The notes: generated by a model from the sequence alone, not told the origin. A stretch of DNA of 9,979 nucleotides from a virus (IMGVR_UViG_2671180338_000008:1-9979), one strand, 5' to 3'. Shown: positions 1 to 9,979, counted from the first letter of the stretch. Translations and numbers: made by a program.

Positions 1-414
1 CGTAAGTAAAATCAGCCACCCACAGCTGGTCAGGACGTTCTGCCACGAACTGACGGTTTACGCGGTCACCTGCGGCAACGGTTTTCCGGCTGACGGTAGT
101 GCGGACCTTTTTACCCCGGAGAACACCGACAAGTCCCATAACCGCCATGAGGCGCGCCACTGTACATCTGGCCACCCTGATTCCTTCCCGTAACAACTGG
201 CGCCAGACTTTACGCACACCGTACACCTGATGATTTTCATCGTATACGCGCTGTATCTCTCTCTTCAGCCAGTCATCGTGCTGCGCACGGGCACTGCGTT
301 TATCAGGATGATGTCCTGTTGCTAACAGTGGTAATACGTTGACGGGGCAATATGCAGTTCACTGCATACCGGTCCGACCCCGTACTGCCCACGCAGCTTA
401 TCCAGCAGTGGCAT
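1..414 (-). pseudogene. IS629-like transposase OrfB, partial (runs off window) and disrupted
   Basis: ATG at 412-414 overlaps the orfA stop (TAATG). Reads MPLLDKLRGQYGVGPVCSELHIAPSTYYHC then an in-frame TAG at 322-324 (CAG Gln expected). A 1-nt frame change near 316-318 precedes the conserved frame resuming as GHHPDKRSARAQHDDWLKREIQRVYDENHQVYG... Confidence 0.6.
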
Positions 415-739
415 TATTTTTTCCAGAGGCGGTCGAACTCCGCCTTCGCAAAATAAGCGGAAGCCTGGCGAAGGATATCGTTACTGCGGCGCAGTTCACG
501 ATTTTCACGCTCCAGCTCTTTCAGACGCTGACGTTCAGCGGTGGTGAGCCCTCCATCACCGCCCCCGGTATCCCGCTCATGCTGGCGAACCCAGACACGC
601 AGAGTCTCCGGTGTACAGCCAATCTTTGGAGTAATGGAACAAATTACCGCCCATTGTGAGTCATATTCGCCCTGACTTTCCAGAACCATACGGACTGCCC
701 GTTGACGGACTTCGGGGGAAAACGAGTATTTTTAGTCAT
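414..739 (-). pseudogene. IS629-like transposase OrfA, frameshifted after codon 7
   Basis: ATG at 737-739 with GAGG about 9 nt upstream. The conserved OrfA frame (ORF 414-689, starting MVLESQ...) is +1 relative to this ATG after a T4C5 homopolymer run (plus-strand G5 714-718, A4 719-722). From the ATG the frame reads [15 protein letters not shown]... and terminates early. The intact element is remembered as having one more T in this run. Confidence 0.6.
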
Positions 740-768
740 CCTGTTTACCTCTTTCTCAGGGAGTTTAG

Positions 769-793
769 TCTCCAGGATTCCCGGGGCGGTTCA
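769..793 (-). repeat. Left terminal inverted repeat of the IS629-like element (approximate extent)
   Basis: Element-strand sequence TGAACCGCCCCGGGAATCCTGGAGA... begins at 793. Followed by a GAGG Shine-Dalgarno and the orfA ATG at 737-739. The exact IR length is not determinable without the right end. Confidence 0.6.
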
Positions 794-1696
794 TTATCTA
801 AAAAAGCTGAAAGCCTTAGCTCAGGAAAAATTACGATTGGAACAAAAGAAAAAGTAATCATTATTAATGAGTTAAGGCAATGTCATCCATTATCACAATT
901 ACTGGTTATCGCGGATTTGCCACGTAGTACATTTTACTATCACGTGAAACGCCTTAATGCGCCAGATCCATATCAACTTGTTAAACAAGTAATATTGAGA
1001 ATATACCATCAGCATAAAGGGCGTTATGGTTATCGACGCATCAGACTTGCCTGCCGTAACGAGGGCATTTTACTTAATGGTAAAACCATCAGAAAGTTAA
1101 TGAAGGAACTGGGTATCAGCTCACTTATCAGGCGCAAGAAGTACCGTGCCTATCGTGGAGAACAGGGGCGAACTTGTAATAATTTACTGAAGAGACAATT
1201 TTATGCTGACCGCCCAAATCAAAAGTGGGTAACAGATGTCACAGAGTTTAAGGTCGATGGCAGGAAGCTCTATTTATCACCAATCATGGACCTGTATAAT
1301 GGAGAAATAGTCTCATATAACCTTACTGAGCGCCCATTAGCATCAATGGTAAAGAGCATGCTATTAGATGCGGTAGAACAACTCAATAAAGACGATAAGC
1401 CCTTGTTGCATAGTGATCAGGGGTGGCAATATCAGATGCCTCGTTGGCAACGTTGGTTGAGTGATAATGGCATAACACAAAGCATGTCCCGACGTGGTAA
1501 CTGCTTAGATAATGCAGCAATGGAAAGCTTTTTTAGTACTTTAAAATAAGAATGTTACTACCTAAATAAATACAATAAGTTACATCATCTAAAGCAAGAT
1601 ATAATTGATTACATTGAATACTACAATCACCATCGCATTAAAGAGAAACTCGATGGCATGAGTCCGGTTCAATATCGACTTAAACATTTTTCATAG
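794..1696 (+). pseudogene. IS150-like transposase OrfB (integrase core) with an in-frame TAA
   Basis: Single frame through the conserved transposase core, interrupted by TAA at 1547-1549 (FFSTLK*ECYYLNKY...), after which the same frame continues to the natural stop TAG at 1694-1696 (...HHRIKEKLDGMSPVQYRLKHFS). No own start is present in the window. Confidence 0.7.
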
Positions 1697-1723
1697 GATG
1701 TCCAAGATTTGGGGCGCAGATCA
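794..1723 (+). mobile_element. IS3-family (IS150-group-like) insertion sequence remnant, 5' end displaced by the IS629-like insertion
   Basis: Starts exactly at the IS629-like terminus. 795-857 encodes an OrfA C-terminal leucine-zipper tail (YLKKLKALAQEKLRLEQKKK*) containing an A AAA AAG slippery motif. It is followed by an OrfB with DDE-transposase hallmarks (RSTFYYHVKRL, GRYGYRRI, LHSDQGWQYQ, SMSRRGNCLDNAAMESFF, MSPVQYR). The putative right terminus GTCCAAGATTTGGGGCGCAGATCA at 1700-1723 ends in CA; this IR assignment is tentative. About 40% GC, distinct from the phage module. Confidence 0.7.
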
Positions 1724-1787
1724 TTTGAAAAGGTGGGCACCTACGTTACCAATACTGGCTTAATGGCTACATACGGCAGTCGGTTTA

Positions 1788-1829
1788 CGCTTACCTCCGT
1801 TAACGCTTACCTCCGTTAACGCTTACCTT
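1788..1829. repeat. 16-bp tandem direct repeat, about 2.6 copies (CGCTTACCTCCGTTAA)
   Basis: Read directly: CGCTTACCTCCGTTAA at 1788-1803 and 1804-1819, then CGCTTACCTT at 1820-1829. Lies in the unassigned segment downstream of the IS150-like end. Confidence 0.8.
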
Positions 1830-1973
1830 TAATCTGCTGAATTTCGAATTGTTCAGGAGTAATAGTCCAAAGTATCGGGAATTTTCCAGACAATCCTGAT
1901 AATACGCTTATGAACATTACAACACGCTCATGCGGAACCTGGATGGGGGAAGGAACGGTGAAGCTGTTAGCGA

Positions 1974-2003
1974 ATGACCGGCGTTTGTATAAACGCCGGT
2001 CAT
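1974..2003. repeat. Perfect 13-bp-arm inverted repeat with a 4-nt loop (ATGACCGGCGTTT GTAT AAACGCCGGTCAT)
   Basis: Read directly. No U-tract follows on either strand, so it is not a canonical intrinsic terminator. It sits about 50 nt downstream of the stop of the minus-strand 96-codon ORF. Confidence 0.8.
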
Positions 2004-2053
2004 GATGAATGATATTTCAGAATATACCTCGGGCTAAAATACCGGGACAGAGA

Positions 2054-2344
2054 TCAGGCGTGATTAATCTGCAGCATTTTTAATAACAGAAGTACTGAGC
2101 TTACTTTACCTTTGATGATGTAATAGTTATTTCCGTCGGTACTCATTTTTCCCTGAAATAATGTCACGGATGTTTCTTCCTGCTGATCCTGCAGGCGCAG
2201 TCGTAAGGTCATATTTTTAATGAGCTGAGATCCGGGTGGCAAGGGGTATTTGCTGTCAGATACTGGGCGACTGAGTCTGATGTGGCGCGTATACAGCCCG
2301 TTTTCGTACAGGGTGGCCTCTGTTATGGTGTCAGTGACCAGCAT
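2054..2344 (-). CDS. Hypothetical protein (96 aa), possibly a 5'-truncated gene remnant abutting IS1
   Basis: ORF MLVTDTITEATLYENGLYTRHIRL...LKMLQINHA. Its ATG (2342-2344) lies 3 bp from the IS1 end and in the same frame as insB, 6 codons after the insB stop. No recognisable family and no clear Shine-Dalgarno. Confidence 0.3.
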   Translation of the reverse strand: MLVTDTITEATLYENGLYTRHIRLSRPVSDSKYPLPPGSQLIKNMTLRLRLQDQQEETSVTLFQGKMSTDGNNYYIIKGKVSSVLLLLKMLQINHA

Positions 2345-2362
2345 GTGGGTAATGACTCCAAC

Positions 2363-2866
2363 TTATTGATAGTGTTTTATGTTCAGATAATGCCCGATGA
2401 CTTTGTCATGCAGCTCCACCGATTTTGAGAACGACAGCGACTTCCGTCCCAGCCGTGCCAGGTGCTGCCTCAGATTCAGGTTATGCCGCTCAATTCGCTG
2501 CGTATATCGCTTGCTGATTACGTGCAGCTTTCCCTTCAGGCGGGATTCATACAGCGGCCAGCCATCCGTCATCCATATCACCACGTCAAAGGGTGACAGC
2601 AGGCTCATAAGACGCCCCAGCGTCGCCATAGTGCGTTCACCGAATACGTGCGCAACAACCGTCTTCCGGAGACTGTCATACGCGTAAAACAGCCAGCGCT
2701 GGCGCGATTTAGCCCCGACATAGCCCCACTGTTCGTCCATTTCCGCGCAGACGATGACGTCACTGCCCGGCTGTATGCGCGAGGTTACCGACTGCGGCCT
2801 GAGTTTTTTAAGTGACGTAAAATCGTGTTGAGGCCAACGCCCATAATGCGTGCAGTTGCCCGGCAT
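2363..2866 (-). CDS. insB: IS1 InsB reading frame (expressed as the InsAB' fusion by programmed -1 frameshifting)
   Basis: 167-aa translation [27 protein letters not shown]...[15 protein letters not shown]. Stop TAA at 2363-2365 lies inside the terminal repeat. Confidence 0.9.
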
Positions 2867-3060
2867 CCAACGCCATTCATGGCCATATCAATGATTTTCT
2901 GGTGCGTACCGGGTTGAGAAGCGGTGTAAGTGAACTGCAGTTGCCATGTTTTACGGCAGTGAGAGCAGAGATAGCGCTGATGTCCGGCAGTGCTTTTGCC
3001 GTTACGCACCACCCCGTCAGTAGCTGAACAGGAGGGACAGCTGATAGAAACAGAAGCCAC
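2785..3060 (-). CDS. insA: IS1 InsA (transposition repressor / N-terminal part of the InsAB' transposase)
   Basis: 91-aa translation [43 protein letters not shown]...LKNSGRSR starting at GTG 3058-3060; zinc-finger CxxC...CxxC motif. Confidence 0.9.
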
Positions 3061-3130
3061 TGGAGCACCTCAAAAACACCATCATACACTAAATCAGTAA
3101 GTTGGCAGCATCACCTCATTCGTCTGTTCC

Positions 3131-3637
3131 TTAAATCTTCCAGGAAATTTCTGCATTGCCGTCAGCATCACCGGCACCTGTGAATTCAGCGTTGGTCAGC
3201 ACCACGTTTTTGCCACTGACTGACGTGGACATGAATCCACCCAGCGGCACTTTGATGGATTCATCAGTGGAGACGACAACGTATACCGGATCGCCTTTTT
3301 TGATAGTGCTGGCATCAAAATCAGAACCGAGATTAACGGTCACGTAGCCACGCTTCATGGCGTCGCCCGGGAAGTTCTTGCCTGTTCCCACCTGGCGAAC
3401 CATGTCCGGCTGCGACGTGGTCGGATAAGGGCGCACGTAGATCCCCTTCACCTTGTCTGCGGTATCACCATCTGCCAGCGGCACGAAAAAACCGTCATCA
3501 TCGTATTTACCAGCCAGGCCATAGGCAGCGAAGGCGTTATCGGATTTAAGGACCACCGGTTCGACGGTTAAGTCCTGCGGGCGAGAGACAGCCCCGGCAA
3601 TGCCAACAGGCATCCGGTACAGAAATACATTATTCAT
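3131..3637 (-). CDS. Phage protein of unknown function (168 aa), last gene of the head module before IS1
   Basis: ATG 3635-3637 with AAGGG about 7 nt upstream, 3 nt after the stop of the upstream gene. Stop TAA 3131-3133 lies only 15 bp from the IS1 terminus. Beta-rich, Gly/Asp/Val-rich composition suggests a structural protein; no family recognised. Confidence 0.5.
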   Translation of the reverse strand: MNNVFLYRMPVGIAGAVSRPQDLTVEPVVLKSDNAFAAYGLAGKYDDDGFFVPLADGDTADKVKGIYVRPYPTTSQPDMVRQVGTGKNFPGDAMKRGYVTVNLGSDFDASTIKKGDPVYVVVSTDESIKVPLGGFMSTSVSGKNVVLTNAEFTGAGDADGNAEISWKI

Positions 3638-3640
3638 TTT

Positions 3641-4861
3641 TTACCCTTTACGGTTTGCCCAGAATTCAGCGTTTTGTTTGTTCAGGGAAGCGATACTGGT
3701 CATGCCCATGTTTAGGCGCTGTGCATCGCCGGTGGTGGCGCGGGTGTTTCGCCCTTTGGCAACCTCAGACACGGCATTAAACGCCATGTCGACCGATTGT
3801 TTCGGTAATTTGCGGATATCCGCATCACCGACTATCTGGCGAACCAGCGTTTTGTCAGCAGAAGCCAGAACCTCGCGTTTGAACGCGGTCGGTTTCATCT
3901 TACGGCTCAGATCGATACCCGGAACGATAACTTCGGCACGCCAGGCTGAGTCACCAGTAATCGTGGTTTCCTCTTCATCGTCCTCGCCGTCACCGGTCGG
4001 ATTATCGTCAGGCTTATTATCGTTATCGCCCGTGGCATTTCTTTCCAGCTTAGCCAGCAGGGCTTTCAGTAATGTTTTGAGGTCATCATCACTGTCGCCG
4101 GTTGGATCTCCGCCCATCTCTGGTGCTTTGTCCGGTAGTGGTTGCTGCGGGGACAGGTTGATGTTGAGATTAACGCCCTGCGGCAAATCCCCCTCATCTC
4201 CTGTAACCGATGCGGGAGCCGACTCCACCAGTTCGTTCATGGTGTCGGCATCTCCTGTCTTGATGGCCGCACGCATGCGGTTCCACCAGTTTTTCTTTTG
4301 ATTTGCCATTGTGTCTCTGTCTCCAATTGCACAACGATTTCCGGCTCTGCCTTTAGGGACAAGAGCCACATGGTTTCCGGTAATATCGACCTGCTCGGCT
4401 TTACCTGGCTCGGTCTGCTCGTACTCCGCGTCATAGCCGCACGACACTTCGCGCAGGCCATCTTCGATAAGCTGAATGGCGCTTTCGTCTTTGACGATAA
4501 GGTCAGCCAGCATCAAATCAGACTGCTCACCCGTCCCGCGCCGGACATTCTGGAGGTGCCCGACAGCAAGCTCTTTCCAGTTCTCGGGATTTACCAGCCG
4601 CACATTCCCGTTTTCATCTTCAGGATGCAGGATCGTGATGCTCATCCCTTCGAATGAGGCAAGCGTGGCCGGATGGAATACCTGCTCAGGAGAACGCGTG
4701 ACGACTATTTCACCGAACTTATCGGGTTTCAGTTTTGGCAGGTCATCAGCACCATAGAGCTGCTTACCTGTTCGTCCTATCGGCACGTCTTTGCACAGCA
4801 ACGAGCCGTCAGCCAGGCGGTATCGGGTTTCCCCGAGCCTGGTCTCAAAAAAGTATTTCAT
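3641..4861 (-). CDS. Phage head-maturation protein: N-terminal DUF2213/XkdF-like putative prohead protease domain with a C-terminal acidic scaffold-like region (406 aa)
   Basis: N-terminal motifs FHPATLASFEGMSITILHPE, REVSCGYD and GNHVALVPKGRAG resemble the DUF2213 family (recalled, not searched). The C-terminal half is acidic and low-complexity (TGDSDDDL, DNDNKPDDNPTGDGEDDEEE) with a coiled-coil-like LKTLLKALLAKLERN. An internal in-frame ATG at 4307-4309 is preceded by GGAGA. Gene starts 3 nt after the Mu-F-like gene stop. Confidence 0.55.
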   Translation of the reverse strand: MKYFFETRLGETRYRLADGSLLCKDVPIGRTGKQLYGADDLPKLKPDKFGEIVVTRSPEQVFHPATLASFEGMSITILHPEDENGNVRLVNPENWKELAVGHLQNVRRGTGEQSDLMLADLIVKDESAIQLIEDGLREVSCGYDAEYEQTEPGKAEQVDITGNHVALVPKGRAGNRCAIGDRDTMANQKKNWWNRMRAAIKTGDADTMNELVESAPASVTGDEGDLPQGVNLNINLSPQQPLPDKAPEMGGDPTGDSDDDLKTLLKALLAKLERNATGDNDNKPDDNPTGDGEDDEEETTITGDSAWRAEVIVPGIDLSRKMKPTAFKREVLASADKTLVRQIVGDADIRKLPKQSVDMAFNAVSEVAKGRNTRATTGDAQRLNMGMTSIASLNKQNAEFWANRKG

Positions 4862-4864
4862 GGG

Positions 4865-5647
4865 TTATGCTGCCCTTTTCATTGCGAATGGAACGCGAAC
4901 AAACACGATCTCTTTATAGCAGCGGCAGTTTGGCAGCTCGCCCGCGTGGCCGGTCATGCCGTCCAAAGTTGGAGGTGAATCCCAGCGGACGAATTTACCT
5001 TTCATGTGATCGTGGGAATCTCGGACATCGCCATCATCGGCTGTACGCCAAATATAACCATCCGAGCCAATAGCTATCGCTCGGGCCATATCCAGCGCGC
5101 CCGTTGCTCTTCCCAGTTCCGTTCGGGCAATCAGATCGGCCCTAGACTTAGCAACATCGCCGGTAGATGCAATCTCTTTAGCAAACTGCTCCGCCCGACC
5201 ACCGGTGACAACAGCCTCTATCGCTTTGTTCTGGATGTCGTACACCCTGTCTGCGGCCTCGAGAGGCAGAGATTTGATGTACTTGACCTGTTCGGCGATG
5301 ATGGATTGCATCACCTGGCCCACAGGAGCGCTTTCCACAAGATTGCGGAGCTCGCGACTGATGTTCTTGCTGTGTTGCCGCCAAACTTTCTCGTTCTGCC
5401 GGGTTAGGTCCGCAGTAAAGTTTTCCGCGACCTTTGTCGCCCAGGGGGTGATGATTTCACTGTAACGCTCCAGCGCCGCAATAATTTCCGTGATACTGTC
5501 ATTTGAACCATCGTAGCGACCATTTACGATGTCTCCGACCGCCCTCGCTATCCTGCGTAGGCTGGTTCGATACCGGATTTCCGCCTGACGGCTCCTGCGG
5601 TTCGTCATCAGGTTCGCCGATGCCGGGCGGCGCTTCATCTTCGGCAT
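4865..5647 (-). CDS. Phage head morphogenesis protein, Mu F / SPP1 gp7-like (260 aa)
   Basis: Motifs typical of the Phage_Mu_F domain: RTELGRATG, DVRDSHDHM, GHAGELPNCRCY. ATG at 5645-5647 with GAGGA 8 nt upstream. The start is uncertain (alternative ATGs at 5636-5638 and 5606-5608), and any of them overlaps the portal 3' end by more than 100 nt. Confidence 0.7.
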   Translation of the reverse strand: MPKMKRRPASANLMTNRRSRQAEIRYRTSLRRIARAVGDIVNGRYDGSNDSITEIIAALERYSEIITPWATKVAENFTADLTRQNEKVWRQHSKNISRELRNLVESAPVGQVMQSIIAEQVKYIKSLPLEAADRVYDIQNKAIEAVVTGGRAEQFAKEIASTGDVAKSRADLIARTELGRATGALDMARAIAIGSDGYIWRTADDGDVRDSHDHMKGKFVRWDSPPTLDGMTGHAGELPNCRCYKEIVFVRVPFAMKRAA

Positions 5648-6965
5648 TCTCGATGTCCTCGTCGGTAATGGATGCCCCGATGCCGGTTACGTCAGAATTT
5701 TCTCGCAAATCAGTCATAGCGGCTTTCAGTGTCATCAGACCATCACCCAGCGCCGTACTGATTGCGTTGGTGGTGTTTAACGCCACCGTTGAGCGATCGA
5801 CATCAGACATTTGCCAGAGCGGGTTAAACTCAAACGTGAAATCGTCCGGCAGCGGCTTGCCAAGTTCCGAACGATGCATGATGTCCAGTATCCGCCGCAC
5901 CGGAAGACGTAAACGCCTCTCCTGCAACGAACTGATGCGATCGTAATAGTTGGCAAGGTCTGCATCACCGGTAGAAAATCCTTTCGGGGACTGTCCGAAC
6001 AACCGCACCAGTGGGATACCAACAGCGCCACTAATCTGTTCTACAAACTGCGAAAGGATGTCATCCAGACCACTGAAGCTGTACTGATGGGTTTCAAACT
6101 TATCCCGCGAGTCCATGAGCGTCATGCCTTCATTACTCTGGAACTGTCGAATCAGGTCGATATTCTTCAGCAACGCTTCATACGCAGGACCACCAAGTGC
6201 GATAAGCTCGCGTAGCTTCTCCACGCTGTAGGTACGCAAATGCGCCTTGTAGACCAGCTGCGCCGCGCCGACAGTAGCGCTGTCGAACGCGGTAAGACGA
6301 TCCCAGATACGCTCTACAACCGACATTCCCCATTCGTTCTCGGTCATCTTCTGCTGAAATGGCAACGTGACGCCATCAAAGCGAATCAGGCGACTGTGAT
6401 GAATGCGCCAGGCAGGAATTCCCGTTGCTGTGGTCACCACATCGTAAAACTCAGGTTTACCCAGGTCCGGCCCCATATCTTTAATGCGGCGGGTCAGTGC
6501 CGGGTCGACCATCCAGCGGTCGAGCGGGAGAATCCCCTTAAACTTGCCCTTACCGATGGTTTCGGGTCGCAGCGGGGTCATTGGTGCCTACCCCTCAATC
6601 ATGATGAAACCCACCGCGCCGCCGTAGAGGCGCGACCATTTCAGCACGTCATTCAGCGCATCCCAGATTTGCAACTCATCCAGTTGTGATTCGAGAATGC
6701 CACGATCTTTTGCATCAATTTCCGAAGTGATGCGAATGCCTTTGCGGGTCATATCATCCGGGATAGCATCGACTGCTTCGCCGATGATCTAGGATGAACG
6801 ATAGGACCATTCCACCAGCATGCGGTTACGACTGGTGAAATTAGCCCGGTAGGTGGATGCTGAGTGCTGGTTAGGTGTCTGCATCCCTACGCGGGCAATA
6901 AAATTCTCATAACCATCAGCTGTGGCCTGCACAGTTCGCCGCAGGGCTTGTTTGTTTCGTGCCAT
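5499..6965 (-). pseudogene. Phage portal protein gene interrupted by two in-frame amber (TAG) codons
   Basis: One continuous frame. ATG 6963-6965 overlaps the large-terminase stop (TGA 6965-6967) by 1 nt. Reads MARNKQALRRTVQATADGYENFIARVGMQTPNQHSASTYRANFTSRNRMLVEWSYRSS, TAG at 6789-6791, IIGEAVDAIPDDMTRKGIRITSEIDAKDRGILESQLDELQIWDALNDVLKWSRLYGGAVGFIMIEG, TAG at 6588-6590, then APMTPLRPETIGKG... for 360 more codons to TGA 5499-5501. Size (~487 codons) and position after the terminase fit a portal. Confidence 0.8.
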
Positions 6966-8368
6966 CAGGCCTGTCTCCCCAGCTGTTCCCAGATATCCAG
7001 CGATGTATCGATTGGCGCGAAGGCCATAATGAATGCATCAGCAACGTTTGGTGACGGTATCTCGCGTTTTGCGAGGTCTTTTTTACTTTCGACCATCACA
7101 CGTCCGTTACGGTCGAAATCACGATGAGGTGTTGTCAGTTCCAGTTTCAGCTTTTCAAGCAACGGACAACGAGAATCTATGCTGATCAGCTCATCCACAG
7201 GATACTGTTCTCCGTTGTTAATGGCGTTAAACGTATTTCTGAAACGGTCAGCCACCAGCCACCATGCCTGAGCCTTAAGATTTGCGAAAAAGTCTTTGTT
7301 GGGGATGCCGTTGTACTCGTCATCTGGCTCATGCACACCAGCACCGGCGTTAAACCTCTGGTAATTCACACGTCGCGCGTATGCGTTCTCGCTCTTCCGG
7401 TCAGCGTTAATTTCAGAGAATTTAGCACCGGCAGACGCACCAACACCGATAGAGTCGTAAACAATATCTGCTTCACGCTCCAGCGCCGCCTGATAAGTAC
7501 GCTGGCAGCTCTTCAGTAATTCATCTTCTTTGGCCTTCCATTCGTCGGCCCAGAAAACAACGGATCCGTGACGGTAAACGTTAGCGCACTTATCTGTACC
7601 ACTGTCAGCCACGTCAAAGCCAATACGCTTTCTTCCACTGGGTTCGAAATTTAACGTTTTGTGCGCATCCACTGCGGCTTCTATCCAAGACAGTTTGATG
7701 ATTGCCGCATCATCATCAGACTCCGGAACGCCCTCATACACATGTTTAAAACCATCCGGATCACGGCGTCGCGCCGCGTCGATAACCTTAAGCATGGTGT
7801 CAGACAGAAACGGATTTTCGTCATAGTTAATTTTGCGGATGAGAGTGCCTTCGGGCGGATCAACAACGAAGTTGCGCCAGACGAAATCAGTAACAAGTCC
7901 GGGGTTGAATATGAACCAGCATTCCGAACCCTCTTTACGGATCGTTGGCTCCAGAATTTTCCACTGGTATTCCGTCAGTGCGTGGGCTTCTTCCAGCCAC
8001 AACACATCGATCCCCTCCAGTGACTTAATTTCTTCGATGTTGCGCCATAATCCATAAAAAACAAATTCCGAGCCAGTAACCCGGTTAATGATTTTGTTGT
8101 TCAGAATACGGAAACGGTGCCGCAGACCAAACCTGTCTATCTGAATTTTGAGCAGGGTATACACCGACTCTTCGATTTTATTCTGGATCTGACGGGCACA
8201 ACAAAAACGCAGGGTGTATTTATTCGACAGAAATATGGCAATGCCAGCGGCATCCCATGATTTTGACGATGACCGACCACCATAAAGCACTTTGTTACGT
8301 GCCCGCATAGTCCAGAAACTACGTAAAGCCGGATTCAGCGTCGGTTTGGATGTCAGAGTAGAAGTCAT
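6965..8368 (-). CDS. Phage terminase large subunit (Terminase_3 / PBSX-type), about 467 aa
   Basis: N-terminal NPALRSFW...ARNKVLYGGRSSSKS (Walker A P-loop), then WLEEAH (Walker B-like) and a C-terminal nuclease-like region. Start chosen at ATG 8366-8368 (MTSTLTSKPTLNPALRSFW...) with GGAGAG 10 nt upstream. The ORF-track start at 8476 is a TTG far upstream and unlikely. Alternative ATGs at 8384-8386 and 8393-8395. Confidence 0.85.
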   Translation of the reverse strand: MTSTLTSKPTLNPALRSFWTMRARNKVLYGGRSSSKSWDAAGIAIFLSNKYTLRFCCARQIQNKIEESVYTLLKIQIDRFGLRHRFRILNNKIINRVTGSEFVFYGLWRNIEEIKSLEGIDVLWLEEAHALTEYQWKILEPTIRKEGSECWFIFNPGLVTDFVWRNFVVDPPEGTLIRKINYDENPFLSDTMLKVIDAARRRDPDGFKHVYEGVPESDDDAAIIKLSWIEAAVDAHKTLNFEPSGRKRIGFDVADSGTDKCANVYRHGSVVFWADEWKAKEDELLKSCQRTYQAALEREADIVYDSIGVGASAGAKFSEINADRKSENAYARRVNYQRFNAGAGVHEPDDEYNGIPNKDFFANLKAQAWWLVADRFRNTFNAINNGEQYPVDELISIDSRCPLLEKLKLELTTPHRDFDRNGRVMVESKKDLAKREIPSPNVADAFIMAFAPIDTSLDIWEQLGRQA

Positions 8369-9083
8369 TGAGGTCACGCTCTCCATTGCCATCATCAATA
8401 CCTGCATCACGGCGAAGACGATCAGCCTCCAGAGACACCTTATCAGTGGCGGCCTTGCGGTAGGCTGTATCAGCAAATATTTTTCCTACCGTCGCAAGCG
8501 TGCCAACGATGGACTCAATACGAACTGTATTGCGCATCATTGCTTTCTCGGCGGCGCTGATATTTTCAATCAGCATCTTCCTTTCCTGGTCCCCATTAGC
8601 ATCTTCCAGCGACACCAACCACCGACCAATATTCTCTGCAGCGACAAGGTTGTTAGCACGAAGGCGAAATAATTCGTCCTCGAGCGTCAACGCTTTAGCG
8701 TCCTCTATCACCTCATCTTTGAGCAGAAGGCGACGGGCATAACCACCGTGTTTTAATGCCTGCTGGTTACCGGGTTGGAATGGGTTAGTCGGGGGATCGG
8801 TACGCATTCCGCGTATCGGTTTCGTATCCGGTGTAGATTCTGTTTTTAGTTGCGTACTTTTTTGTGTAAGGCCAGTAATGGCAGGCTTTCTGCTGGTACG
8901 CACTTTCCTTTTTTGCGTACCATTTTTGCAAACCTGCGTACCGCCACTGCGTGCCCAACCAAGCTTTTTGGCCCTCTTCCTGATAGCCCCTTCTGTAACG
9001 CCGTATTTCTCGCCTATATCACGGAGGCTAAGGACTCCGGCCCGGTATGCCGATTCGATGGCCTCCCAGTCCGGTTTTGCCAT
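8319..9083 (-). CDS. Phage terminase small subunit (254 aa)
   Basis: ATG 9081-9083 with AGGAAG 7 nt upstream. N-terminal HTH-like segment (LSLRDIGEKYGVTEGAIRKRAKKLGW) typical of small terminase DNA-binding domains. Sits immediately upstream of the large terminase; its 3' end overlaps the chosen terL start by 50 nt. Confidence 0.8.
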   Translation of the reverse strand: MAKPDWEAIESAYRAGVLSLRDIGEKYGVTEGAIRKRAKKLGWARSGGTQVCKNGTQKRKVRTSRKPAITGLTQKSTQLKTESTPDTKPIRGMRTDPPTNPFQPGNQQALKHGGYARRLLLKDEVIEDAKALTLEDELFRLRANNLVAAENIGRWLVSLEDANGDQERKMLIENISAAEKAMMRNTVRIESIVGTLATVGKIFADTAYRKAATDKVSLEADRLRRDAGIDDGNGERDLNDFYSDIQTDAESGFT

Positions 9084-9280
9084 GATTATGCTTCCTGTGA
9101 TTTACTGTTATCGCTGCCTGTCACAATAGGTTGCTTTAATTCTTCCTCATCACTCACTCCTGCGACGCTCCGTGGCAGGGCCCCCCACAGGAGTACCTTG
9201 TAAATGTAAGGTGTTTAAGCCTAAATTAAGTCGTATCACGGTTAAATAGCAAAGAAAAATTCACAGAAGGAAAGACATTG

Positions 9281-9790
9281 ATGGAGTGGATAAATGCTTT
9301 GATGAACTATTTTGTACTTCATCCATATCGCCTATGGGGGCTTCTTTTTATAATAGCGTTCACAAAATCCACTTTACTCATTTCGGCGATATTGCCACCA
9401 GCATCAATTATGATGGCCACTGTAATTACAGTCAGCAAGACGACTCTTTCACCATGGGAAGCTGGAATCACGGTCATGAGTGGCGCATGGTGCGGTACTA
9501 TCGTTAATTACCATCTTGGTATAATAATTGGGCATATCCCTCAACTTGCATGTATAATATCAAGCCGTTCCAATACAATAGAACGGGTTCGCCTTCAGTT
9601 GCAAAATAACTCTGTGTCAATACTTTTCACTTCGCGCTTTATCGCCGTGCTGCGTTATATTGCTCCTTTGGTGGCAGGAATGTTGCAACTTCATCCAGTG
9701 AAAGTGTATACAGTGAGTCTGATTTCAGCTGCTAGCTGGTCAGCACTTTATGTTGGTAGTTTTAGCTTCGTGTTGCCTTTTTTTAGCTAA
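9281..9790 (+). CDS. Small inner-membrane protein, DedA/YqaA-like (about 169 aa)
   Basis: Hydrophobic segments throughout; weak resemblance to the COG1238/YqaA family (...GTIVNYHLG..., ...VLRYIAPLVAG...), recalled from memory. ATG at 9281 preceded by AAGGAAAG; the track ORF starts at TTG 9278. About 40% GC, unlike the adjacent phage module. Confidence 0.5.
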   Translation: MEWINALMNYFVLHPYRLWGLLFIIAFTKSTLLISAILPPASIMMATVITVSKTTLSPWEAGITVMSGAWCGTIVNYHLGIIIGHIPQLACIISSRSNTIERVRLQLQNNSVSILFTSRFIAVLRYIAPLVAGMLQLHPVKVYTVSLISAASWSALYVGSFSFVLPFFS

Positions 9791-9878
9791 ACTGCCCATA
9801 AAAAGCTCTTGCGAATCCAGCTTCCCCCATTCCTCTGACAACAGAATCTGATTTGAAGGATAATGAGTAAAATTACCG

Positions 9879-9979
9879 CTACCCCCCAAGGCATTGGATC
9901 CTGATGTACTCCTGAAGCATTCTCAATGCTGTCTGGTCGCTGATGATTCCGTCCCGGATACCGAGAACGTTTCGTCCAG
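9879..9979 (-). CDS. Possible 3' end of a gene entering from beyond the right edge (partial)
   Basis: Minus-strand frame open from the window edge reads ...GRNVLGIRDGIISDQTALRMLQEYIRIQCLGG* with stop TAG at 9879-9881. A second frame is also open through this region, so the assignment is weak. Confidence 0.25.
   Translation of the reverse strand, partial: GRNVLGIRDGIISDQTALRMLQEYIRIQCLGG

Follow-up and report, generated by a model that had tools for sequence, protein, structure and literature searches.

A stretch of 9,979 nucleotides catalogued as viral DNA (IMGVR_UViG_2671180338_000008:1-9979; hereafter the window, meaning this whole stretch) carries a cluster of phage head and packaging genes that ends abruptly at a copy of the insertion sequence (IS) IS1, and the question it raises is how these genes came to be separated from the rest of a phage genome and joined to their present neighbor. 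A preliminary description of the window depicted a head-only phage module truncated on both sides and attributed the break at IS1 to an adjacent deletion or to recombination between two IS1 copies. Comparison with related genomes identifies the region as the already known remnant of an ipaH-carrying temperate prophage of Shigella sonnei. The history that we consider likely is that of a decayed prophage that underwent an old IS1-associated deletion and then an inversion between two IS1 copies; the suggested kinds of events were thus right, but both appear to have acted, in turn, rather than a single event alone.

Relatives were sought by a search of complete Escherichia coli genomes followed by look-ups of exact proteins. 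The phage part of the window (positions 3116-9979) is 100% identical to the corresponding region of S. sonnei 53G (HE616528.1) and of five other S. sonnei chromosomes, and is 99.88% identical (8 substitutions, no gaps) to part of a complete prophage of FDAARGOS_944, a Shigella-like genome that, like FDAARGOS_943, is deposited as 'E. coli' (NZ_CP065613.1 and NZ_CP065615.1, respectively). This intact relative is a full 43-kb prophage located between ybhA and pgl, with its own tail, lysis, regulatory and integrase genes. Starting from one end, the order is pgl, an invertase remnant, ipaHb, tail fibres, baseplate, tail and neck; these are followed by the DUF2184 major capsid protein, cement, DUF2213, Mu-F, portal, large terminase (TerL) and small terminase (TerS); and the other end consists of a DedA gene, an Rz-like lysis protein, the lysozyme RrrD, holin, four tRNAs, a Q-like region, cI/cro, xis and int, next to ybhA. 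Both FDAARGOS genomes share with the window the ybhA/pgl site, the gene order from cement to Rz and the DedA gene; unlike the window, they possess the capsid, neck, tail, baseplate, fibre, ipaHb, regulatory and integrase genes along with an intact portal gene. In FDAARGOS_943, other IS elements break TerL and the tail region. In the Shigella flexneri-type copies (loci L032-L041 and L002), IS2 breaks TerL at the equivalent of window positions ~7915-7920, the cement gene encodes a shortened product of 118 amino acids (aa), and the capsid gene is followed by IS600 and Mu-like DNA, with the portal gene intact.

The head module is also found in free phages. In Escherichia phages vB_EcoM-689R2, 611R5, 683R1 and 606R2, it is 94.5% identical over window positions 3116-7018 (the first 3.9 kb of the query), and in Salmonella phage SEN34, the identity is 82.8% across query positions 1-5968, with 58% of the query covered. 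These phages share with the window the set of DUF1073 portal, Mu-F, DUF2213 and cement genes; they differ from it in being complete phage genomes of 33-43 kb, whereas the window contains a non-functional fragment fixed in a chromosome.

The comparison with the intact prophage at the same locus, which had been proposed as a check, reveals the missing capsid and tail genes and delimits the loss. The survey for the deletion covered all 27 contigs with the S. sonnei-specific portal fragment in the 24 longest-contig blocks of the collection; 26 of these contigs, including those of Ss046 (CP000038.1) and 53G, are chromosome-scale. All 26 chromosome-scale S. sonnei contigs share one arrangement, namely, cement gene, IS1, a 43-aa open reading frame (ORF) and pgl. 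In the coordinates of the intact locus (L001), the pgl-side flank stops at position 925 and the first base on the phage side is 20001; the gap, positions 926-20000, amounts to 19,075 bp. What was lost starts at the second codon of the capsid gene, takes in the connector, tail, baseplate and tail fibre genes, ipaHb and most of the invertase remnant, and ends ~400 bp upstream of pgl. It had been stated that contiguity of the IS1 flanks in related genomes, with a 9-bp duplication, would refute a rearrangement; S. sonnei relatives instead show IS1 joined to pgl, and the flanks in this standard arrangement, CCCCCTGTT and TCATTCGTC, also differ, without any duplication. Judging by these chromosomes, a 19,075-bp IS1-associated deletion is fixed in S. 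sonnei. Its route would be either intramolecular IS1 transposition, that is, an adjacent deletion, or recombination between two direct IS1 copies. A search for an IS1 at the pgl-side endpoint in a genome retaining the tail genes yielded, as the nearest case, a copy ~60 bp away in the enteroinvasive E. coli (EIEC) O121 strain 201805972; this IS1 has a duplication of its own (CACAGTCAT) and the related prophage of that strain lies at another site, making the case uninformative with respect to the deletion route.

At the prophage side, the end of the IS1 element can be placed to the base. The final 15 bp of prophage DNA (3116-3130, minus strand, aligned to L001) comprise the cement-capsid spacer, the ATG of the capsid gene and one further base. 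Window position 3116 corresponds to L001 position 20001, and the coding sequence of the major capsid protein (DUF2184) occupies L001 positions 19063-20004 on the minus strand. The capsid ATG survives at 3117-3119, where it reads CAT, and the right end of IS1 lies one base past it; hence the capsid gene was cut after its first codon. The absence of a major capsid gene noted earlier is correct with regard to the body of the gene, but the surviving start codon had been missed. The stop codon of the cement gene, at 3131-3133, is 15 bp from the IS1 end, in agreement with the distance originally given for the last phage gene.

The IS1 itself is complete (2348-3115, minus strand, 768 bp), as determined from its sequence ends, Pfam matches and comparison of the flanks. 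Its terminal inverted repeats are imperfect (GGTAATGACTCCAACTTATTGAT versus GGTGATGCTGCCAACTTACTGAT, reverse complement), with 18 of the 23 bases matching and a longest exact run of 8 bases, which is below the seed length of the automated repeat search that returned no IS1 terminal repeats. The frames of InsA (2785-3060, minus strand) and InsB' (2363-2866, minus strand) overlap, and the Pfam matches are Zn_ribbon_InsA (1.3e-21), HTH_Tnp_IS1 (4.7e-31) and DDE_Tnp_IS1 (5.9e-78). The IS1 copy of FDAARGOS_943, labeled an IS1A-family transposase in RefSeq, is 99.7% identical (2 mismatches in ~769 bp). As the preliminary description had it, the flanking 9-mers differ, CAGCATGTG (2339-2347) on one side and TCATTCGTC (3116-3124) on the other, so the 9-bp target duplication typical of a simple IS1 insertion is not found at the window IS1; we attribute its absence to a later rearrangement. 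Such a duplication is seen at other IS1 copies, in particular, TATTCTCTC at the sister copy in 53G and the one in EIEC O121 mentioned above.

One flank of the window IS1 derives from the selC island and the other from the prophage at ybhA|pgl, two loci that are ~3.24 Mb apart in 53G; this bears out the claim that the window IS1 is not a simple insertion. Window positions 1-2347 match the selC island of E. coli BR1220 (97.7% identity) and of E. coli cM8a, beside sat and iutA. Adjacent to IS1, at 2054-2347 (minus strand), is the IS1-cut 3' half (97 of 193 codons, by alignment to WP_000291745.1) of a hypothetical gene, which in its intact, 193-codon form adjoins sat in the selC islands of BR1220 and cM8a. 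This half-gene also occurs in the SHI-2 loci of S. sonnei, where it lies directly against an IS1 and the flank, CAGCATGTG, is identical to that in the window; the far side of that IS1 is the sat'/iutA part of the island. The standard S. sonnei remnant, as represented by 53G, Ss046 and others, is 100% identical to the window from IS1 to the window end and shares with it an IS1 placed at the same base, the portal stops and the 19-kb loss; the difference is at the far side of IS1, which is pgl in the standard remnant as opposed to the selC-island half-gene in the window. In other words, the place of the tail genes is held by IS1 and pgl in standard S. sonnei, and by IS1 and the selC island in the window.

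Parental IS1 copies exist at both positions in standard S. sonnei, with TCATTCGTC on the cement side and CAGCATGTG on the half-gene side, and the prophage-side, island-side and window copies are identical at 768 of 768 positions. In 53G, the two copies, at ~794,235-795,002 and 4,038,971-4,039,738, are in opposite orientation, and a reciprocal exchange between them gives the exact arrangement and strands of the window. Hence the window IS1 is best read as the hybrid junction of an IS1-IS1 inversion, a step that we infer from this single junction. The two IS1 copies are directly oriented in S. sonnei CP019689.1 versus oppositely in 53G, so large inversions separating the two loci are already present within the species. 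A further case comes from the complete genome of S. sonnei CP179997.1, in which a third flank (L050, positions 5116-6421) adjoins this same cement-side IS1; the flank consists of ipaH-upstream and invertase-remnant sequence up to the ipaH ATG, with yaiW coming next. It represents a second, independent swap, and the prophage IS1 therefore changes partners repeatedly.

The history suggested by these comparisons begins with a temperate, ipaH-carrying prophage of the myovirus type, with lambdoid regulation and a head module of the type found in Salmonella phage SEN34 and Escherichia phage vB_EcoM-689R2, which integrated between ybhA and pgl in a Shigella ancestor. In the S. sonnei lineage, as the comparison shows, the IS1-associated deletion then removed 19,075 bp and left a single IS1 without a duplication, and further decay added two nonsense codons in the portal gene and other IS elements in the holin and late region. 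With no major capsid gene, no intact portal and no tail, baseplate or fibre genes contiguous with the head genes, the prophage in the window is without a functional set, and what remains of it, as far as can be predicted from the sequence, cannot make particles. In the strain from which the window comes, the prophage IS1 would subsequently have recombined homologously with the 100% identical IS1 of the selC island (SHI-2-type, aerobactin/sat). In the coordinates of 53G, such an exchange would invert ~3.24 Mb or the complementary 1.74 Mb and would yield the order selC-island half-gene, IS1, cement gene. The reciprocal junction expected elsewhere in the same genome would combine the pgl side with the sat'/iutA side as CCCCCTGTT, IS1 and TATTCTCTC (or GTATCTGAG); with longer flanks, it would read pgl-upstream GGTAAATCCCCCTGTT, IS1 and either TATTCTCTCAACTCATT on the iutA side or GTATCTGAGTTAG on the sat' side.

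Several observations weigh against this history. The window-type junction is present in none of the 26 chromosome-scale S. sonnei contigs, nor was it found among the 24 contigs read for the selC-side ORF, where all S. sonnei places shown keep the iutA side; hence, it is uncommon, if not unique. Of the two junctions that an inversion should produce, the window shows only one, and the crossover point within IS1 is unmappable because the parental copies are identical. Judging from K-12 map positions, an inversion at these positions in a genome collinear with 53G would be very asymmetric about the replication origin. As for the earlier step, the data on the 19-kb deletion are compatible with intramolecular transposition as well as with recombination of direct copies. 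The search of complete E. coli genomes with the whole window returned no record with at least 80% coverage, and the window-type junction was not returned by exact-protein look-ups with the 96-aa truncated ORF, the portal fragment, Mu-F, DUF2213 or the 91-aa ORF.

The rarity of the junction, together with the identity of the IS1 copies, is what lends weight to the possibility of an assembly chimera, in which the genome is that of a standard S. sonnei, the wrong unique flanks were joined across two identical 768-bp repeats, and the junction does not occur in the cell. Copies that are 100% identical are the classic condition for a mis-join, and the junction is seen neither in the 26 chromosome-scale contigs nor in the selC-side loci shown; furthermore, the canonical IS629 bases at positions 488, 504 and 566 at the far end of the window could reflect a repeat-confused consensus or polishing. 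Those bases, however, also occur in an independent draft contig (LYDY01000034.1), and the window crosses several IS elements without a break, which is suggestive of a finished or long-read assembly, for which a 768-bp repeat poses little difficulty. Moreover, another complete genome, CP179997.1, shows a different partner swap at the same IS1, and the strand geometry fits a legitimate inversion exactly. We therefore regard a chimera as unlikely, albeit as an explanation that has to be taken seriously. Exchanges of the postulated type are in line with what has been reported for these bacteria: passages of two studies describe high rearrangement rates in Shigella generally (Seferbekova et al. 2021, PMC8072062) and, in the work on 15 reference S. 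sonnei genomes, IS-flanked inversions confirmed with long reads (PMC12795559). As in the window, the IS-mediated rearrangements treated in the passages of these sources involve homologous recombination between IS copies that leads to inversions and deletions, with prophage and island genes pseudogenized. The S. sonnei inversions tabulated in PMC12795559 span 20-130 kb and are flanked by IS4, IS3 or IS630, and none of the searched passages of the two papers lists an exchange of IS1 copies that involves the pgl prophage remnant and the selC island.

A further explanation of the IS1 break, namely, that a single adjacent deletion or a simple insertion of IS1 accounts for everything, with IS1 entering at the capsid gene and then deleting the adjoining phage DNA, and that the DNA to the left is the original neighbor of the prophage, agrees with the lack of a target duplication and with the fact that a deletion beside the prophage IS1 did occur in the S. 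sonnei lineage. Nevertheless, the left flank is the selC island, ~3.24 Mb away in 53G, rather than a neighbor of the prophage; the true neighbor, pgl, flanks the IS1 in all 26 chromosome-scale contigs; and a deletion joining the two loci would cost megabases of core genome. A single event is thus very improbable, and an adjacent deletion as the sole event is refuted by the selC-island flank together with the pgl neighbor in the 26 contigs. The other alternative, mentioned in the preliminary description as the less likely one, is a remnant of a satellite that forms its own capsids, akin to the capsid-forming phage-inducible chromosomal islands (PICI), and carries head and packaging genes only. 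These satellites do resemble the window in having a cluster of head and packaging genes only, which is all that is seen in the interval between IS1 and the DedA gene. Unlike them, the window lacks a capsid gene, has a dead portal gene with two stop codons, contains no satellite integrase or replication module, and runs straight into lysis and late genes that belong to a full prophage, the lysis genes being directly next. Its module is collinear, at 99.9% identity, with a prophage of 43 kb whose genes include those for the tail, lysis, regulation and integrase, and it matches the head regions of the free temperate myoviruses vB_EcoM-689R2 (94.5%) and SEN34 (82.8%). Given the collinearity, the missing capsid gene and the dead portal, we reject the satellite explanation, to which we attach almost no probability.

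The inversion following the old deletion accordingly remains the reading that we favor. Beyond it, the IS1 at the broken capsid gene could be a recurrent partner that drives megabase-scale, strongly asymmetric inversions in S. sonnei, that is, a hotspot of rearrangement. This proposal, prompted by the two different partner swaps in the window and in CP179997.1, is tentative and, in our opinion, somewhat doubtful. If it holds, a border of the aerobactin/SHI-2 island would have been moved beside phage packaging genes, with possible effects on replichore balance and on the expression of island genes.

In all, the window is an ordinary object of a well-understood kind, a decayed prophage in an IS-rich pathogen, with an IS1 that was involved first in a deletion and then, probably, in an inversion. 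Its importance beyond bookkeeping is small; it offers a base-resolved example of IS1 dismantling a prophage in a young, host-restricted pathogen, with the same IS1 later serving as a portable patch of homology for chromosome rearrangement. A real junction would mark a strain-specific large inversion, relevant to the structural typing of S. sonnei and to anyone who takes this assembly as a reference, whereas a mis-join would point to an assembly error. More generally, the case shows that a comparison with intact relatives is needed before a 'head-only' cluster next to an IS element is labeled a satellite.

The phage genes of the window were called from ORF lists combined with Pfam and PHROG scans, and their intactness was judged against the intact FDAARGOS_944 prophage. 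All six head and packaging genes are on the minus strand, and the initial identifications of the small and large terminases, the Mu-F-like protein and the protease/scaffold hold in these scans, the unnamed small protein being the cement protein. The latter, a structural cement or minor capsid (decoration) protein of 168 aa (3131-3637; XM1_gp53_minor_capsid, 4.4e-30; Phage_cement, 2.8e-21), is intact and identical to that of the intact relative. Next to it is an intact DUF2213 protein of the head-maturation protease/scaffold type (3641-4861; Pfam DUF2213, 2.8e-42, and PHROG head maturation protease families), which differs from the intact relative by the substitution S403N, and an intact Mu-F-like head morphogenesis protein of 247 aa (4865-5608; Pfam Phage_Mu_F, phrog_324). 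In part of the S. sonnei genomes (L015-L017, L019 and L022), the Mu-F gene is called as a 152-aa product only, as against 247 aa, and the Mu-F gene of FDAARGOS_943 contains an internal stop.

The portal gene (5499-6965, minus strand; DUF1073/Phage_portal_3, with Pfam Phage_portal_3 matches on fragments) was identified correctly from the start but is a pseudogene: relative to the intact 488-aa portal, it has the nonsense codons W59* (base 6790) and Q126* (base 6590), because of which it is listed as three in-frame ORFs. The same portal fragments are present in every S. sonnei locus fetched. The DUF1073 portal homolog in E. coli NZ_CP148474.1 is named 'anti-CBASS protein Acb1 family protein' by RefSeq, which looks like an oddity of annotation transfer. 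The large terminase, TerL (6965-8368, 467 aa; Pfam Terminase_3, 4.5e-38; RefSeq 'PBSX family phage terminase large subunit'), is intact and differs from the intact relative by A431D; the small terminase, TerS (8319-9083, 254 aa; phrog_370, 7.5e-95), is intact and identical to that of the relative.

Beyond TerS, the divergent gene for a membrane protein with a DedA/VTT domain (9278-9790, plus strand; Pfam VTT_dom) was described earlier as AT-rich and as directly following TerS, which it does: the G+C content of this region is 39-45%, compared with about 50-55% for the phage genes. It is not, however, the boundary that it had been taken for. The protein is intact and identical to WP_011069285.1, and its gene separates TerS from Rz in the intact prophage and is present in FDAARGOS_943, FDAARGOS_944 and all S. 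sonnei; it is missing in the avian pathogenic E. coli (APEC) relative E19057, where the lysis genes directly precede TerS. From its absence in relatives of the APEC E19057 type, the DedA gene is identified as a low-G+C moron within the prophage. The window ends within an Rz-like 'lysis protein' gene, of which the 3' end, the last 33 codons, is at 9879-9979 (minus strand); its translation matches the C-terminal end of the L001 lysis protein (156 aa) without any difference. Thus, contrary to the initial impression that lysis genes are lacking, they follow here, and phage DNA continues on the right: Phage_lysis and Phage_lysozyme genes come next in all S. sonnei loci, and 53G has, beyond the window end, Rz, lysozyme, an IS-disrupted holin region and the Q region. 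The truncation postulated for both sides is real at IS1, with the capsid gene cut and 19,075 bp lost, but not at the right side.

On the island side, the window starts with a remnant of IS629 (IS3 family; 1-690, minus strand), a SHI-2-type selC-island flank identified by Rfam and Pfam matches and by synteny; the syntenic copy in E. coli BR1220 is annotated in RefSeq as an IS629-family pseudogene. It contains a frameshift pseudoknot (Rfam ALIL, 343-459, minus strand, 119 bits) and a 91-aa ORF (414-689) with the Pfam domain HTH_Tnp_1. Scans of the window for Rfam families, tRNAs, promoters and terminators found nothing besides this IS3-type pseudoknot. At positions 488, 504 and 566, the window has the canonical IS629 bases, as in the syntenic remnant of BR1220; derived bases, which result in two amino-acid changes in the 91-aa ORF, are found in all three S. 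sonnei chromosomes for which this comparison was made base by base (53G, CP032523.1 and CP061367.1). The canonical bases recur in the draft contig LYDY01000034.1, and the 91-aa ORF was matched only on contigs of at most 8 kb. An early-branching strain, gene conversion from a full-length IS629 or a polishing artifact are possible sources of the canonical bases.

Abutting the IS629 remnant is the transposase ORF (297 aa; 656-1549, plus strand; Pfam rve and HTH_21) of a second IS3-family element, which is also present in the SHI-2 loci of S. sonnei. An IS3-family element of ~1.25 kb is inserted at ~1747 of the window in several other S. sonnei genomes. Tandem Repeats Finder (TRF) detected a 16-bp tandem repeat (GTTAACGCTTACCTCC) at 1783-1828, in 2.9 copies; CP032523.1 also has 2.9 copies, and 53G and CP061367.1 have two more units, a 32-bp length difference in the alignment. 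Compared with E. coli, S. sonnei has also lost 2.7 kb right beside the island-side IS1. In the selC island of 53G, a 1.5-kb sat' fragment (the N-terminal 510 codons) is retained between two IS1 copies, one of which is a simple insertion with TATTCTCTC duplicated on both sides. This fragment is gone from most other S. sonnei genomes, apparently through recombination between the two IS1 copies that flank it.

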